NCBI GenBank assembly: GCA_963771275.1
Contig: CAVYSW010000007.1
Coordinates: 1 to 26,908 of the forward strand
Direction of reading: 5' to 3'
Length of the DNA: 26,908 nucleotides
DNA from: an uncultured Gemmatimonadales bacterium
GTDB taxonomy: Bacteria > Gemmatimonadota > Gemmatimonadetes > Gemmatimonadales > GWC2-71-9
The notes beneath the pieces are model-generated. The model did no database searches, was not told the origin of the DNA, and saw nothing but the letters and a program-made list of their open reading frames with translations. Positions 643 through 18,711 of this stretch are shown piece by piece. The translations under genes were made by a program, and so were the position numbers. The first letter of the stretch is position 1. Each line of letters begins with the position of its first letter.

Positions 643-1082
643 AGCGAGTCGTGCGGGAGGGAATCCGTCTGCGCGGCCCGGTGTCGGATGATTGGTTGGT
701 CGACGAGGACACGTACCGGCTGTCCCTTGAACGTCCCAGGCTGGTATTGCCACTGTGAGACGGCATCTCGCACCTGGTCGAGAAAGCCGGGTGCTTGCGG
801 GAATGCCCGCTCGCGACGGTGGGCGTCAAGGATTCGAATGGTTTCACGTTCCGGCCGCCCATCGAGCCCGACGACGAATTCCAGGAGGAAGAGGGTGTCC
901 TGAATCGTGGGCGGCACACTGAACATCGGCTCCGCGCGTCGCAGGAGGCTATGGGAGGCCTCGGTGCCGAGCACGATGGGCTCTATGGAAGCAGGTGCTC
1001 GTGCTGACTGGCAGCCTGGCCCGAGAAGCATCAGACCGGTGGCGAGGAGGAGGGGCCGCTGCGCTGTGGTGAAGAGATGCAT
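573..1082 (-). CDS. Putative lipoprotein with TonB C-terminal-like domain (cassette; ORF reads into attC)
   Basis: Signal peptide ending LLGPGC; EFVVGLDGRPE..TIRIL and WQYQPGTFKGQPVRVLVDQPI resemble TonB_C. Confidence 0.6.
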   Translation of the reverse strand: MHLFTTAQRPLLLATGLMLLGPGCQSARAPASIEPIVLGTEASHSLLRRAEPMFSVPPTIQDTLFLLEFVVGLDGRPERETIRILDAHRRERAFPQAPGFLDQVRDAVSQWQYQPGTFKGQPVRVLVDQPIIRHRAAQTDSLPHDSLPNKRLKLAGPVRSQRNGSLLAW

Positions 1083-1090
1083 GGCTCGCT

Positions 1091-2504: not shown

Positions 2505-2505
2505 G

Positions 2506-2691
2506 TCACGGCTCCGGTACCTCCAGGTCGCGACAGATCTTCCGGGCCATAAAGTCATCGACCTCGCGATGCCGAGGCACCGTCGAGGTCTTGCGTCGTG
2601 CGCGATTCACGTAGACCGAGTGCTGGGCGCCTTCCCGCAGCAGCTCACACCCGTTGGCCTCCAGGTGGCGGATGAGATCGCGACGCTTCAC
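2506..2691 (-). CDS. hicA: HicA family toxin
   Basis: MKRRDLIRHLEANGCELLREG..HS.Y.N......TVPRH.E....ARKICRDL; GTG start overlaps hicB stop. Confidence 0.9.
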   Translation of the reverse strand: MKRRDLIRHLEANGCELLREGAQHSVYVNRARRKTSTVPRHREVDDFMARKICRDLEVPEP

Positions 2692-2905
2692 GCCGGCAGG
2701 CGCAGCGGCTCGCGAATCACCTCCTTGGTCCCGATCGCTTCCTCCGCGAGCACGCGGTTGGCCTCGAGCACGAGCCGGACGGCTTCGGCGAGGTTGGCCC
2801 GGGCCTCCTCGAGGGTGGTGCCCTGGGTATTGGCGCCGGGCAATTCCTCGACGAAGCCGATGTAACCGAGGGGCACCTTTGGAACACGGCGGTCAGTTCT
2901 GGCAT
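2688..2905 (-). pseudogene. hicB: HicB family antitoxin with a 1-nt deletion near codon 10 (real or sequencing error)
   Basis: MPELTAVFQ (from ATG 2905) and VPLGYIGFVEELPGANTQGTTLEEARANLAEAV are out of frame; adding one base to the T-run at 2878-2880 restores ...FQKVP.... Confidence 0.8.
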
Positions 2906-2910
2906 GCTTC

Positions 2911-2919
2911 AATCTAGCA
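2911..2919 (-). promoter_or_regulatory. Putative extended -10 promoter for leaderless hicBA
   Basis: Minus strand TGC-TAGATT, then 5 nt, then ATG 2905; no SD. Confidence 0.45.
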
Positions 2920-2934
2920 AGATCTTTCAGTGAC

Positions 2935-3076: not shown

Positions 3077-3566
3077 GCGCTCGTCGCGATCGTCGCCAGT
3101 CATCGAAACGGTAAGGGCGATTCCCGCGTATCCGTGGCACCGACCCGTGCCGCGATGGCGGGCGAAGCGCACCAAGACATCGGCAGTGCGCGCCGAGCGT
3201 CAAGCTATCGACGAACGCGGTAAGGGAGTCCGCCGACATGACGGCCGCCGCGTGACGGCTTGCGGTATCGCCAGGCACGAGCGTTCGGTACTGCATCGCG
3301 AGCAAGTGAAACGCCCCGCACCGTGCCGAGTCTCGGCCACTGATGACGAATACCCCGAATCGCGCGGTCCAACCACGAGAACCACCCAGCCCGGGGCCAG
3401 CGGCCGATGGCCTGGGCGCTACCAGGACTGCACAGGCGACGGGCGGTGAAGTCGGCCCCAGTTGCCGTCGCACGGTGCCGGGCGCCAAGAACGTCGCTGC
3501 AGGCCGCGACGGCGAGTGCCGCCGCCAGCGAGGGCAAGATTAGGGGATCAGGTCTTGATCGCTCAT
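3071..3566 (-). pseudogene. Probable frameshifted lipoprotein cassette
   Basis: Lipobox-like LILPSLAAALAVAAC-SD is out of frame with ATG 3566; the downstream protein-like text switches frame. Confidence 0.4.
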
Positions 3567-3575
3567 TGGCGAGGC

Positions 3576-3718: not shown

Positions 3719-4227
3719 GGCGACCTGCGATGACGGATCCCGTCAGCGCGCACAGTGGACGATGCCAAGACGATGTCGACGCGGCCGAGCATCCGCCGAC
3801 GACCCAGTTCCATGCTTACGCGCTCGGTCGAGTTCCTCGACGCAGTGCCTCGTGACAGCGCTGCAAGTCGGCGAGCGCCTGGGATTCCACGGAAGACGAT
3901 AGCAGACGACCTCGAGACCCCCTGTGAGTGGCGCGACTCGGCCACGCGCTGGTGGCGTCGCTCTCGAGCTGCAGATCCGGGACCATGACGGCGTCGGCTG
4001 ATTGACCGTGACCTCGGCCGGAGGGCCCGCTGTCGACCGGAGCTCATGCGCGGCTCTGCACTGCCGTCGGAGTCGATAATCGCGAGCCGCAGTCGGGTCA
4101 CGCGCAACAGCTCCTCGGTGGGCAACTGCCGATACCGGCCAACTGAGTTCGTCGAGCTACGCGCATCGGCGCTCAGGAGCGATTCGCGACTGGCCTGGCA
4201 ATGAGCATCCGATGTGCAGCTGTCGCC
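3719..4227 (-). other. Cassette body without a convincing ORF (decayed gene or non-coding)
   Basis: Bounded by attC sites; 5' ATGs give only short peptides and no ORF fits the cassette ends. Confidence 0.5.
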
Positions 4228-4370: not shown

Positions 4371-4871
4371 GGCTGCTGGTGCGATTGGATCCCAAGGGCA
4401 CCGTACCGGAGCCATCACGTGCTTCCGGCAGGTTTCCACGAACGTTCCCTCCTCCACGGGCGGGTAGTAGCAGGAGTGCTGCCCCCAGTCGATACGATAG
4501 TGACCGCTCAGCGTGGCGGTGAACGCCTGAAGACGAAAGGGCCAAAGCCAGTCGTTGAGGAGAACCTCCCTGGCGGTCGCGGGCCGAATGCCGGTTATGT
4601 CGTCCCAACGCACGAAGGTCGGTGGACCGGCGGCCCGCACGAATCGGATGCCTCGCGGGGTCAGTTCGAGCCGGCGGACGAGGAACCGCCGAATAAGGAA
4701 GGGGAGGAGGAGGAGCACGAACCACAAGGAACGGAGCTCTGGCAGGAGACGCGTCAGCGGTACGAGAAGCGTGACGAGGACTAGGAGGAACGCGACACTT
4801 ACCGCCGCGGCCGCCGCGACATCGCGTGCATCCCGGGGGGCGTGAACCGGCGCGATGATTGTCGCTTCCAT
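4365..4871 (-). CDS. Hypothetical membrane protein (2 TM + possible bacterial PH-like domain), cassette
   Basis: Two hydrophobic helices then LELTPRGIRF...VRWDDITGI; stop TAA lies in R'' as is typical of cassettes. Confidence 0.7.
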   Translation of the reverse strand: MEATIIAPVHAPRDARDVAAAAAVSVAFLLVLVTLLVPLTRLLPELRSLWFVLLLLPFLIRRFLVRRLELTPRGIRFVRAAGPPTFVRWDDITGIRPATAREVLLNDWLWPFRLQAFTATLSGHYRIDWGQHSCYYPPVEEGTFVETCRKHVMAPVRCPWDPIAPAAA

Positions 4872-4891
4872 AGCAACCCCCACTTGCAGCC

Positions 4892-5038
4892 GCCTAACGG
4901 ACTCTGCGCTTAAGCTGCCGGCCCTAGCTCGCCAGCAGCAACGTGTGTCAATGAACGTACCCAGGAATTCACCACGCGAGCAAAGACCTCTTCCTTCGTG
5001 AACGTACAGGGCCGGCCAGCTTCAAGCGCCGGTTAGGC
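4892..5038 (-). repeat. attC site, family A
   Basis: GCCTAAC 4892-4898 and GTTAGGC 5032-5038. Confidence 0.95.
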
Positions 5039-5194
5039 AGCGCCGGACGTGCGCCGTGCATGGCGACTCAGATAGCTGTCCGCCCGGCGGCCTGGCCGTC
5101 GATCCCGGACACGCCCACGCGCTGCCGGATGCCGCGGTGCAGCCGAGCTCCGGCAGGCCACGCAGGCGAAGCTGGACCGACGTTGACCCGCAGG

Positions 5195-5257
5195 ATCTGC
5201 CAGACATCGCGTCTCCCGCCGAGCCATCGCGCCCGTCACAGCAAGCGCCTGTTAGAC
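5195..5257 (-). repeat. Truncated attC (family C; R''/L'' half only)
   Basis: Matches the first ~60 nt of attC 110-244 on the minus strand, then diverges; no AAC (R') between 5039 and 5250. Confidence 0.75.
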
Positions 5258-5569
5258 GACGCCCGTGGTGCGTGAGGGGCCGCGCCGCTGCCGCGGCACA
5301 GTGCCCGGGGCCACCGGCTGGAAACCCACCGCCGACTCCTGGTGCGCCGACGGCGCGGCCCCGAACGCGGTGGGACCGGGCGCGCCGGAACGCGCGGGGC
5401 CGCGCGGCGCAGCGGAGCGATTCCTCGGGCAGCGAGGAGGAGCTGGTTGCGTTGTGTGGTGCGCGGAGCGGCGAGCGCGGCCCGAGAGTGAGGAGCGTGA
5501 CGGGCCGCCACCCGGATCCTGCTTTGCTCACCACCCTGGTTCATGTCGTTGTGCCTGGCGACGTCTAAC
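5251..5569 (-). other. ORF-less cassette, copy 2
   Basis: ~96% identical by manual alignment to 5700-6018; two compensating indels, no credible protein. Confidence 0.75.
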
Positions 5570-5706
5570 GGACTTGCGCTTAAGCTGCCGGCCCTAGCTC
5601 GCCAGCAGCAACGTCAGTATGAACGTACCCAGGAATTCACCACGCGGGCAAAGACCTCTTCCTTCGTGAACGTACAGGGCCGGCCAGCTTCAAGCGCCGG
5701 TTAGAC
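5563..5706 (-). repeat. attC site, family A
   Basis: GTCTAAC 5563-5569 and GTTAGAC 5700-5706. Confidence 0.95.
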
Positions 5707-6018
5707 GACGCCCGTGCTGCGTGAGGGGCCGCGCCGCTGCCGCGGCACAGTGCCCGGGGCCACCGGCTGGAAACCCGACCGCCGCCCCCGGGTGCCCCGA
5801 CGGCGCGGCGCCGAACGCGGTGGGAACGGGCGAGCCGGGACCGCGGGGCCGCGCGGCGCAGCGGAGCGATTCCTCGGGCAACGAGGAGGAGCTGGTTGCG
5901 TTGTGTGGTGCGCGGAGCGGCGAGCGCGGCCCGAGAGTGAGGAGCGTGACGGGCCGCCACCCGGATCCTGCTTTGCTCACCACCGTGGTTCATGTCGTTG
6001 TGCCTGGCGACGTCTAAC
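5700..6018 (-). other. ORF-less cassette, copy 1 (first position after attI)
   Basis: Bounded by the attI core and a family A attC; frames are Arg/Ala/Pro-rich and not conserved between copies. Confidence 0.75.
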
Positions 6019-6045
6019 TCATAGTAGACTGACGCATCCCCTACT
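6012..6045 (-). other. Putative attI site (core GTTAGAC at 6018-6012)
   Basis: Last core site of the array; lacks the L-box/palindrome of attC on its intI-proximal side (minus: GGGATGCGTCAGTCTACTATGA-GTTAGAC). Confidence 0.75.
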
Positions 6046-6185
6046 ACACACCTCCGGCCAATCGGCCTCGGCGAAGTCCCTCGCAGGAGATGCAACCCTC
6101 CTACCAATATGCTCCTACGTCACTCGGCCAGCCAGATTGGTGGTGCCCTTGGGCGGACGGGGGGTCGGTGTAAGACGCGGTCGGC

Positions 6186-7247
6186 CTACGGGTTTTGGGG
6201 AGGATTGGAGGGGTGGACCTCAGCCGAGTGGGGCCGCAGGGAGGGCAGGGGAAGGGGGAGGAACCGAGTGGCGGGGAGCGGGGCAACCAGGAGGTCAGCG
6301 GGACTCCGCACCGCCAGCCCCCCGCGATTGAGCACGTGGGTGTAAATCATCGTGGTGCGGACGTCCTGGTGCCCCAACAGCTCCTGGACGGTCCGGATGT
6401 CGTAACCGGCTTCGAGCAGATGCGTGGCGAAGGAGTGGCGGAACGTGTGACACGTGGCCCGCTTGGGGATCCCCGCCGCCCGGACGGCCGCCCGCACGGC
6501 CTTCTGCACCGCCGACGGATGCCAGTGATGCCGGCACACGGCCCCCGACGCCGCGTTCACATAGCGCCGGGTCGACGGGAACACCCACTGCCACGCCCAG
6601 TCCAACACGGCACCCGGGGCCTTGCGATGCAACGCCCCCGGAAGCGGCGCCCCGCCGGCTCCCGCCTCCCGATCACGCTCCCACCGCATGCGCACCCGCC
6701 CGAGATGCACCCGCAGCTCGTCGGCGACCGAGAGGGCAAGCATCGTGACACGATCGCGCGCGCCCTTGCCACTCCGGACCCGGATCTCGCCGCGCACCAG
6801 ATCCACATCCTTGACACGCAGCTGAAGCGCCTCCATGAGCCGTAACCCCGACCCGTACAGCAGACCCACCACCAGCCGGTTCACGCCCTGCAACTGCTCG
6901 ACCACCCGCACGACCTCGACCGGCGAGAGCACCACCGGCACCCGCACCGGCTCCTTTGCGCGGACCACCCCATCGCCCAAGCGCAGCCGCCGACCGAACA
7001 GGTGCTCATAGAGGAACAGCAGCGCGCTCGCCGCCTGGTTCTGCGTGCCCGCACTGACCTTGCGCTGCACCGCGAGATCGGTGAGGAAGGCGGAGACCTC
7101 ACGCTCGCCCATCTCCCGCGGATGCTTCACGCCGCAGAACCGGACGTAACGACGCACCCACCCCGCGTACGCCTGTTCCGTCCGCGGGCTGTAATGCCGC
7201 GCCCGAATCTCGCGGCGCACCTGGGAGAGGAGACCACCCGTCACCAC
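6186..7247 (-). CDS. intI: Integron integrase (tyrosine recombinase)
   Basis: [36 protein letters not shown], IntI-specific insert LPGAL.RK.P.A...[40 protein letters not shown]. Start uncertain; GTG 7247 chosen because TATGGT lies 6 nt upstream. Confidence 0.97.
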
Positions 7248-7384
7248 GCCCGCACCATAACGGGCGACCCGGCAAGACCCGCAACCACCGCATCGCGGCA
7301 CGTGCCATTCCTCGGCACCACGCCGCGCCTCATAGCACCGTCACAGCCCTCATACCCACCGCCACACGTGTGCGGCGGCCCGGT

Positions 7385-11728: not shown

Positions 11729-11779
11729 CGAACGCGGGCCCGTCTCATCGGGCAGACCGGGCTGGCCGTTCACGCCACA

Positions 11780-11848
11780 CTCTGCACCCTGCACTCTGCA
11801 CTCTGCATTCCGCACCCTGCACTCTGCATTCTGCACTCTGCATTCCGC
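11780..11848. repeat. Heptamer tandem repeat (YYCYGCA) x ~10
   Basis: ctctgca ccctgca ctctgca ctctgca ttccgca ccctgca ctctgca ttctgca ctctgca ttccgc. Confidence 0.92.
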
Positions 11849-18062: not shown

Positions 18063-18134
18063 GCGCCAAAGTCTGGGGTCCGAGGGCCCGCCGCAAGAGC
18101 GGGCGGCGCCCGCCGTCGCCCTCGCGCGACAGGC

Positions 18135-18243
18135 CGCGCCGAGTAGCCGCTTGAGCGGCGTTCTAGAACGTGGGTCGTCATCGACGGCGTTGGTGCGAGG
18201 GTGGTCAGTATGTAGGAAGCTGCCAAGGCAGCCACTCGGCGCG
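18135..18243. repeat. REP doublet (REPIN/BIME-like), left
   Basis: cgcgccga-GTAG-ccgcttgagcggc ... gctgccaaggcag-CCAC-tcggcgcg: two short hairpins with outer GTAG/GTGG tetranucleotides in inverted orientation. Confidence 0.75.
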
Positions 18244-18641
18244 TTCTGCCCGGTGAGACGGGCCGCGCATCCCGGTTTCTCGATCGCTACCTGCGCGCGG
18301 TCGCGCGCCAGGAGCGGAGCCGCGTGATTGCCCTGGGTATCGTCGCCACCCACGTCCACGTGCTCGTCGAGTCGCACCCAACCACGTCACTGCCGCGACT
18401 GGTACAGCGATTCAACGGGGGGAGCTCAGTGCTGATTAACCGCGAAGGGCATGCGGGGAACGGGAGAGTGGTCCGGTGGTCCAAGGGCTACACGATTCAC
18501 ACGGTGGGACCGCGGGGCCTCGAACCGGCACGAGCCTACGTCCTGAGTCAGGAATCGCGGCACCCCGCGGAGCGCATCAGAGCTCCGGCGGAAGCGAGCC
18601 TGCCCGACGGTCGCCCTCGTGCGACAGCACGCGCCGAGTAG
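18244..18641 (+). pseudogene. tnpA: 5'-truncated IS200/IS605-like (Y1 HUH) transposase TnpA
   Basis: THVHVL (HUH), L..LVQRF.GGSS, W.KGY...V, catalytic YV..Q; lacks the N-terminal H-x-V-W-x-T region and a start; stop TAG lies in the right REP. Confidence 0.8.
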
Positions 18642-18704
18642 CCGCTTGAGCGGCATCCTAAGACCACAGCCACTCGGAGGCTGCCAAGGCAGCCACTCGG
18701 CGCG
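18630..18704. repeat. REP doublet (REPIN/BIME-like), right
   Basis: Same two REP hairpins as 18135-18243 in direct orientation with a different spacer; similarity extends ~28 bp further upstream in both copies. Confidence 0.78.
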
Positions 18705-18711
18705 ATCGCGC

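Follow-up and report, generated by a model that had tools for sequence, protein, structure and literature searches.

A G+C-rich, gene-less cassette family with differing attC partners in a Gemmatimonadota chromosomal integron

Analysis of the cassette array behind the integrase gene of an uncultured Gemmatimonadales bacterium unveiled two diverged copies of one cassette body in the first and second positions after attI, and a third copy deep in the array. Judged from its sequence, the body is not protein-coding, none of its frames behaving like a gene. It appears joined to at least three types of attC site: the house type of the array (copy 1), an outlier (copy 3), and family C (copy 2 and metagenome relatives). 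We regard the family as a further, G+C-rich instance of the described class of gene-less cassettes, in another phylum. On balance, we favor the view that the body is a passenger cassette, which the recombination of the integron itself maintains and copies and which homologous recombination has reshaped.

Anatomy of the tandem copies and their integron

The window, i.e., the whole stretch of DNA analyzed, is the entire contig C7 (26,908 nt, 71% G+C) of a 3.86-Mb genome assembled in 11 contigs. The features that bear on the tandem copies are as follows, in window coordinates.

6186..7301, minus strand: intI, the integron integrase gene (371-aa ORF from the ORF list; HMM match at 6294-7232), in the same direction as the cassettes
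6012..6040, minus strand: putative attI core, read from the sequence as GTCTACTATGAG|TTAGAC (minus strand), with the crossover between 6018 and 6017
5700..6018, minus strand: first cassette, holding copy 1 of the gene-less body (319 nt with the R' and R'' boxes counted)
5563..5706, minus strand: attC of copy 1, of the array's "house" family-A type; DNA hairpin z -3.63, bulges on the 3' arm of the plus strand
5251..5569, minus strand: copy 2 of the same body, 319 nt; second cassette position
5349..5410, no strand assigned: degenerate tandem repeat with a 25-nt unit (2.5 copies, 71% matches), located mid-body at the site of greatest divergence between copies 1 and 2
5225..5257 (about), minus strand: family-C attC stump, consisting of the R'' box GTCTAAC and part of the L'' arm (~25-30 nt), with a 1-nt deletion and no R' partner
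5040..5224, minus strand: unique GC-rich DNA of ~185 nt fused behind copy 2 (73% GC over 5040-5250)
4892..5038, minus strand: family-A attC closing the fused cassette (5039-5562 plus the site), from the pattern scan and attC comparison

The intI product matched Pfam PF13495 and PF00589 and scored 432.7 bits against TIGR02249, for which the cut-off is 265 bits. The attI boxes are putative, as deduced from the letters. The predicted crossover G|TTAGAC at 6018-6012 coincides with the start of copy 1, 167 nt past the intI stop codon, and the homology between copies 1 and 2 begins at the attI core position. Together with the adjacency of intI, this crossover confirmed the placement of the two copies in slots 1 and 2 after attI that an earlier note on this DNA had proposed. 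The array lies on the minus strand from 6018 downwards. Transcription of intI toward the cassettes, with attI 3' of its stop codon, identifies an integron of the "reverse" or inverted type. A pattern scan found 9 attC sites on C7 and 28 on positions 1-24000 of contig C3, and the two arrays probably join into one. With an intI gene and a long array of homogeneous attCs (median identity to the copy 1 attC, 92%), the locus is a sedentary chromosomal integron.

Two features set the top strand of the array as the minus strand of the window. First, a Pfam scan of 37 array ORFs placed all five cassette-borne matches (DUF4349, HicA, DUF4265, DUF2442, and TonB_C) on the minus strand; a sixth match, an IS110-type transposase, lies on the opposite strand. 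Second, the bulged bases of the folded copy 1 attC lie opposite the AAC triplet of the window plus strand, and the rule in the accessible text of PMC5027507 is that the strand whose bulges are placed opposite the AAC triplet is the bottom strand. Cassette duplication is ordinary in this array: 99% identity links the three copies of a HicA cassette, the two of a TonB_C-like cassette, and the two of a 255-nt cassette.

Copies 1 and 2 match each other well past chance (E 9e-146) and differ in 13 alignment columns, which comprise 11 substitutions and two 1-nt indels (columns 178 and 243). Ten of these 13 differences fall within 66 columns, a clustering equaled in only 9 of 20,000 random placements. 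These figures agree with the initial description of two 319-bp copies separated by about 11 substitutions and 2 compensating indels in the center. The further claim that the indels scramble every frame did not hold, as they cancel, so that just the 65 nt between them are shifted. In the attI-proximal columns 1 to 177, copies 1 and 2 are identical at 175/177 positions and copies 1 and 3 at 153/177; the near-invariance ascribed to the attI-proximal ~170 bp is thus a property of the tandem pair and not of copy 3, which differs in 24 of the 177 columns. In columns 178 to 243, copies 1 and 2 agree at 56/66 positions versus 61/66 for copies 2 and 3. The copies are mosaics, with identical flanks and a divergent center in copies 1 and 2. 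As the earlier note had stated, homology between the two stops at the R'' box, GTCTAAC.

The body proper (~305 nt between the R boxes) is 74% G+C. This is the highest value among the 35 cassette interiors measured, the others ranging from 0.60 to 0.71 (contig, 0.71). The interiors of copies 1 and 2 contain no TA dinucleotide, versus 3.3 expected from the genome frequency. Three minor traits were also recorded. The body ends can pair beyond the R boxes at 5 of 6 bases, which is ordinary, as 3 of the 37 attCs reach 5. The body contains four occurrences of GGGCCGCGC, a motif not enriched in the genome (525 occurrences versus a mean of 671 for shuffled 9-mers). A 39-nt segment at 72% identity weakly suggests an internal duplication.

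Coding, RNA, and promoter signals in the body

ORFs of 97 to 118 aa span the body, and stop codons hardly interrupt five of the six frames because the interior is devoid of TA dinucleotides. The ORFs of the body are accordingly longer than those allowed in gene-less cassettes (ORF of ≤150 bp in Boucher et al. 2006; ≤210 bp in Blanco 2023), which is due to base composition (74% G+C, no TA) only. By the evolutionary definition of Boucher et al. 2006, namely, relatives over the whole length, no synonymous pattern, and no protein match, it is non-coding. The body had been described at the outset as ORF-less and without a credible protein; the second part of this description stood, in that no frame is gene-like, but not the first, given the long ORFs.

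Relatives of the body were retrieved from JGI and ENA with the ATG-led frame, and then its profile, as the query. The search delivered nine "hypothetical proteins" (P0001 to P0009), all of which are read-through ORFs running from an attC across the body into the next attC. These and the three genomic copies allow the frames to be followed over evolution. G+C content by codon position is flat in the body (.76/.72/.75), in contrast to intI (.75/.51/.85). Substitutions specific to copy 3 in columns 26 to 177, i.e., before the first indel, distribute as 7/8/5 over the three codon phases. The changes at codon positions 1 and 2 inferred for P0001 to P0004 amount to 13:8, 12:9, 13:7, and 13:14, respectively. 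The earlier note had set a single frame kept by the homologues against its own non-coding reading; instead, P0007 switches from frame 2 to 3 and P0008 from frame 3 to 2, both P0005 and P0006 lose register at the 3' end, and P0007 lacks the ATG. Copy 3 is likewise shifted at its 3' end, as is copy 2 for 65 nt. Gaps were noted in 6 of the 13 Logan pieces listed over the body, and all of those itemized are one letter long. None of the five open frames in each of two copies had a Pfam match at E≤1. An exhaustive phmmer search with bottom frame 0, the frame it covered, against 1.84 billion proteins returned just two matches, both to ORFs over homologous cassettes. The non-coding character claimed for the cassette is thus upheld by the substitution phases, the frame switches, and the lack of Pfam and protein relatives.

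It seems highly improbable to us that the body encodes a small, Arg/Ala/Pro-rich disordered protein starting at the ATGs at 5993 and 5544 (minus strand), or that it is a recently decayed gene. The ATG-led frame does run uninterrupted through the body in copy 1 and in P0001 to P0004, the two indels of copy 2 cancel, and G+C at the middle codon position falls to 0.57 in the attI-proximal third. A hand count over the variant positions listed (40 of 217) also gave a slight lean toward the third position (13/27). However, such a protein would be out of frame in copies 2 and 3 and in P0005 to P0008, would lack its start codon in P0007, and would have accepted 1-nt gaps in relatives, even substitution across the codon phases, and non-conservative changes (e.g., G to W and R to W). 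Its only protein-level kin would be ORFs that run through flanking attCs.

No part of the body matched Rfam at E≤1. This null result and the absence of a helix excess over shuffled alignments set the body apart from known structured RNAs. Folding of the top strand was no better than that of shuffled sequences (z -0.55), and the bottom strand was somewhat more stable (z -2.26), with 2 of 100 shuffles equaling it. With the three copies as input, RNAalifold yielded 0 (top) and 2 (bottom) compensated pairs, with 14 and 17 predicted pairs, respectively, broken in at least one copy. In a set of 13 sequences, conserved helices numbered 17 versus 14.75 in column shuffles for the top strand and 23 versus 19.15 for the bottom strand, i.e., no excess, with power limited by the composition of the set (3 real sequences and 10 back-inferred from proteins, with third positions unknown). 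Readings of the body as a group II intron, a retron, or a bridge RNA were set aside, as there was no Rfam match and no similarity to the IS110 copy of the array.

We judge it quite improbable that the body encodes a structured small RNA acting in trans or in cis, comparable to sRNA-Xcc1 from a Xanthomonas integron cassette. The precedent, which is cited in the accessible text of PMC6557892, would be compatible with the high G+C content, the conserved length, and the bottom-strand fold of the body, and one 4-bp helix carries two covarying pairs (columns 241 to 244 with 255 to 258). This helix, the only covarying one, nevertheless coincides with an indel column, at which the alignment is uncertain. 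The frequent 1-nt indels, the lack of an Rfam match, the top-strand z value, the predominance of broken over compensated pairs, and helix counts not above those of column shuffles in the 13 sequences also argue against a conserved fold. A scan of 4800-6400 found no sigma-70-like promoter on either strand and no intrinsic terminator, which likewise speaks against such an RNA. No reads of the single RNA run mapped (X21) fell on this stretch, a count that says nothing on expression.

The same scan bears on the main rival explanation, which we consider rather unlikely, namely, that the body is a regulatory cassette that would act as a promoter (sense or antisense) or insulator and set the transcription of neighboring cassettes or of intI. 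Related classes speak for such a role. In the accessible text of preprint 10.1101/2023.11.21.568050, most of 29 gene-less Vibrio cassettes have sense-strand promoter activity; in that of PMC6557892, ORF-less Treponema cassettes, which are co-oriented with intI, are active as promoters, one of them in the first position. According to the same portion of the preprint, in silico prediction failed for the Vibrio cassettes, which makes our null scan weak evidence: a missing consensus does not exclude a promoter here. The conserved length of the family and its patchy conservation would also fit a regulatory element. On the other hand, 4800-6400 holds no sigma-70-like site on either strand, and a TANNNT -10 element is impossible inside copies 1 and 2 because they are devoid of TA. 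Furthermore, a G+C content of 74% is the opposite of that of typical promoter DNA, and the family is not bound to slot 1. Inspection by eye for ECF-sigma motifs, G-quadruplexes, and mini-ORFs revealed none conserved across the three copies. No coding or structural constraint was thus detected in the body by any of these comparisons.

attC partners, further copies, and relatives

The attC of copy 1 folds into a stable DNA hairpin (z -3.63) and is 97% identical to at least five other attCs of the array (median, 92%), in line with its original assignment to family A. The family-C attC credited to copy 2 turned out to be a remnant: merely the R'' box and ~25-30 nt of the L'' arm are left, which were assigned to family C by alignment to two whole family-C attCs. 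The stretch 5030-5275 shows no attC-like fold (z -0.08 versus -3.63 for the copy 1 attC). The DNA behind the stump (5040..5224) contains no recognizable ORF and has no second copy anywhere in the genome. Copy 1 (attC at 5563-5706) and copy 3 (attC at C3:10959-11092) each constitute an integron cassette. Copy 2 alone, with its attC stump, does not; it makes up the front half of a fused cassette that ends with the attC at 4892-5038. In resistance integron arrays, fused cassettes occur in which an attC is truncated. Like these, copy 2 no longer has the R' half of its attC and is predicted to move only as one unit with the DNA reaching to the next attC; unlike in these, both fused parts are non-coding here.

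The attC of copy 3 is an outlier, with at most 79% identity to any other attC of the array, and matches, by translation, the attC behind P0001 and P0004. Intact family-C attCs are run through by the metagenome ORFs P0002 and P0008. The occurrence of the same body with unrelated attCs had been taken to imply attC swapping at R'' or independent cassette assembly. Different attC types on one body are indeed present, but the copy 2 example is a stump. The overall pattern fits recombination or gene conversion between repeated attCs, and de novo cassette assembly is not needed to explain it. We infer that the mosaics, the swapped attCs (with identity ceasing at R''), and the fusion in copy 2 all arose by recombination or gene conversion among the bodies and the ~140-nt attC repeats.

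BLAST and nhmmer both gave three copies in the genome. Copy 3 (318 nt; contig C3:10648-10965 of the same genome, G000) is 89-91% identical to the tandem copies and is flanked by an attC on either side, far into the array. Beyond this genome, full-length relatives were absent from 101 related genomes (including G020), 30 of which contain matches of 22 to 90 nt only, and from 401 genomes of the phylum, where 4 others have short matches of 31 to 82 nt. Five of the short matches were translated and had nothing in common; we treated them as chance matches of G+C-rich DNA. Two Roseobacter matches from genome contigs were discarded, as flanking similarity was absent. Viral contigs and plasmids yielded 0 matches each.

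In metagenomes, a first search with exact 20- to 21-mers of the body found no match, likely because relatives differ in that block. A second search recovered a JGI contig (L043) whose terminal 60 nt match body positions 254-313 at 95% identity, and this match to the 3' block of the body sits directly behind an IS30-like transposase gene. Logan contigs from three runs of three studies (X1; X2, peat; X5, soil) supplied many pieces 85-95% like the body. Diverged relatives are thus present in peat, soil, and wetland metagenomes, and the family appears confined, as far as seen, to this Gemmatimonadota lineage and its close relatives in such metagenomes. Length is stable among relatives over 10-20% divergence, being 318-319 nt in the three copies and free of large indels in protein-level alignments. 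Variability is patchy, with a minor-allele fraction of 0.03-0.05 in columns 61-80, 201-220, and 261-300 versus 0.14-0.17 elsewhere, although two thirds of the bases of the metagenome relatives were back-inferred from proteins, a weak substitute for full DNA.

These relatives also bear on array position. Upstream sequence is visible in five metagenome relatives, and all five follow an attC and not attI. The same intI/attI was found on an X1 contig (0 differences in 222 nt) and on an X2 contig (4 differences in 387 nt), both of which depart from the window at the attI crossover (6012-6014); close relatives therefore carry another first cassette. The family thus also occurs outside the positions 1 and 2 initially reported, and the idea that it is repeatedly placed at the best-expressed slot found no support: copy 3 lies deep in the array, five of five relatives sit behind an attC, and the X1 and X2 contigs leave at the crossover.

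The behavior of these contigs is one reason to consider that the tandem arrangement might be an assembly artifact, in which strain variants of one cassette were laid end to end in a metagenome-assembled genome. Moreover, among the 24 metagenome pieces listed (378 more exist), none bridges attI into copy 1 and none spans copy 1, its attC, and copy 2, and the array is split over two contigs and contains several 99%-identical cassettes. The tandem order thus gains no independent support from these pieces, and none of the data speaks against it. We nonetheless hold this reading to be extremely improbable. Thirteen columns distinguish the two copies, their downstream partners are not the same (a whole attC versus a stump and unique DNA), and the junctions fall exactly at R boxes, like real cassette boundaries. 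An active integron is expected to yield related strains whose first cassettes differ, and Logan contigs break at repeats, so that absent bridges prove nothing.

Known gene-less cassettes and the probable history of the family

Presented initially as an undescribed element, the body belongs to a class already reported from Vibrio (PMC1382264), Treponema (PMC6557892), and Vibrionaceae (preprint 10.1101/2023.11.21.568050), as the accessible texts of these sources attest. According to the available portion of Boucher et al. 2006 (PMC1382264), the share of gene-less cassettes in Vibrio arrays is 6-49%. The non-coding ones are paralogous within arrays, alike over their whole length, and without protein match, with relatives of >80% identity only in other vibrios; selfishness or an unknown role is suggested for them, and attC (59-be) sites are proposed to undergo gene conversion. 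The family studied here resembles those cassettes, as that portion describes them, in the lack of a coding signal, in the several diverged copies per array (84-89% identity in Vibrio, 88-96% here), in whole-length likeness, and in having close relatives in kin only. It differs in belonging to the phylum Gemmatimonadota and in a body G+C content (74%) above that of the contig (71%), whereas the Vibrio array is A+T-rich and below its flanks. Its long accidental ORFs also break the Vibrio rule of no ORF of >150 bp, and it has 3 copies, in contrast to up to 45 in V. vulnificus.

Promoter activity from cassettes that lack a gene is documented for Treponema (PMC6557892) and Vibrionaceae (preprint 10.1101/2023.11.21.568050) in the accessible parts of both sources, the latter stating that the Vibrio promoters are not predictable in silico. 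A cis effect on neighbors thus appears to be the best documented function of the class. The body shares with the gene-less Vibrionaceae cassettes, as characterized in that part of the preprint, a gene-free interior within a large sedentary array. Unlike them, it has no promoter-like sequence and no TA in copies 1 and 2, and it exceeds their 210-bp limit on the longest ORF. Similarly to the Treponema system in the available text of Tansirichaiya et al. 2019 (PMC6557892), intI and the cassettes point in one direction, and the first position can be taken by an ORF-less cassette. By contrast, promoter activity was measured there in E. coli while the body is known here from sequence, the two are not related in sequence, and the first position is not typical of our family.

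The passenger reading that we favor would unfold as follows. The body would be a gene-less cassette with no protein and no conserved RNA fold found, which persists and multiplies, we propose, because it carries a working attC. The integron integrase would excise it and re-insert copies preferentially at attI, which may explain why copy 1, with its house attC, is in slot 1. Homologous recombination or gene conversion would act between the ~140-nt attC repeats and between paralogous bodies. Such events could have exchanged the attC partner (house type for copy 1, outlier for copy 3, and family C for both copy 2 and relatives in metagenomes) and turned copies 1 and 2 into mosaics with identical flanks and a divergent center. 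A deletion in copy 2 would have cost it half of its attC, leaving the body joined to the DNA downstream. The order of these events is conjectural, as is the passenger status itself, which would involve at most a cis effect, as a spacer or on transcription, on neighbors.

Near-constant length, the top G+C content (0.74), and patchy variability speak against pure drift and leave room for a function. The bottom-strand fold (z -2.26) is a further trait that sits uneasily with a mere passenger. Selection could have maintained the body as a GC-rich non-coding module of Gemmatimonadota chromosomal integrons, e.g., a cis-acting transcriptional or DNA-level element without a sigma-70 consensus, a possibility that we regard as unlikely. 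If this were the case, the length, the conserved islands, and the high G+C content would be maintained by selection, and the three attC types borne by this single body would document attC exchange in nature.

This family does not open a new kind of system, in a field where gene-less cassettes are only starting to be understood. It would extend the gene-less class to a high-G+C soil phylum, where the usual explanation by A+T-rich promoters fits poorly. It also provides a clean case of one cassette body with three attC partners, including a half-deleted one, which bears on how attCs are homogenized and exchanged in sedentary arrays.

Duplicated cassettes and possible further gene-less cassettes

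Comparison of the window with C3, another contig of the same genome, revealed cassettes other than the 319-nt gene-less body that occur in more than one copy. A cassette encoding a HicA toxin domain is present three times (window 2505-2934, C3:632-1062 and C3:13603-14034) at 99.3-99.8% identity; HicA is the toxin of a bacterial toxin-antitoxin system. The cassettes at window 643-1090 and 245-499 each have one copy on C3, with 99% identity. Codon-position G+C periodicity was nearly absent in the cassette interiors at window 3077-3575 (spread 0.02) and 3719-4227 (spread 0.06), and the longest ORFs of both had no match in Pfam. These interiors may represent additional gene-less cassettes or, alternatively, two genes in different frames.

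Insertion sequences, a split integrase-like gene and other repeats

Features outside the cassettes just described are as follows.
C3:4583-5590, minus strand: IS110-family transposase gene (L044; PF01548 and PF02371)
C3:964508-965328: second integron-integrase-like gene, in two overlapping pieces in different frames
Metagenome contig Ga0055466_10007381 (L043), locus positions 451-1530: IS30-like transposase gene, inverted ends matching over 10 nt
Window 11778-11842: tandem heptamer CACTCTG, 9.3 repeats, 82% matches
Window 18098-18246 and 18593-18707: direct-repeat pair, spaced by about 495 nt

The IS110-family gene lies within the cassette array, in the orientation opposed to that of the cassettes. 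A second copy of this element (1190 nt, 99.8% identity) was found at about C3:836189-837378, in another cluster of attC-like repeats (C3:834-854 kb). The pieces of the second integrase-like gene scored 188 and 151 bits, both below the cut-off; because it is split into overlapping pieces in different frames, this gene has probably become a pseudogene by frameshift. It is adjoined by an attC-type motif at C3:965370.

On L043, a 60-nt stretch matching the body's 3′ block at 95% identity lies at most about 40 nt past the IS30-like transposase gene, and the contig terminates right after it. Upstream of the insertion sequence, the contig carries an inverted repeat (GCTAAC...GTTAGC) as well as a small gene encoded on the opposite strand. 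The direct repeats of the window share 68 nt at 81% and 32 nt at 94% identity.

The first cassette in close relatives

The same intI/attI region was identified on contigs from two metagenome runs, X1 and X2 (peat), which differ from window 6012-6400 at 0 of 222 nt and 4 of 387 nt, respectively. The attI crossover is precisely where both contigs part from the window, so close relatives carry different first cassettes, as would be expected of an active integron.
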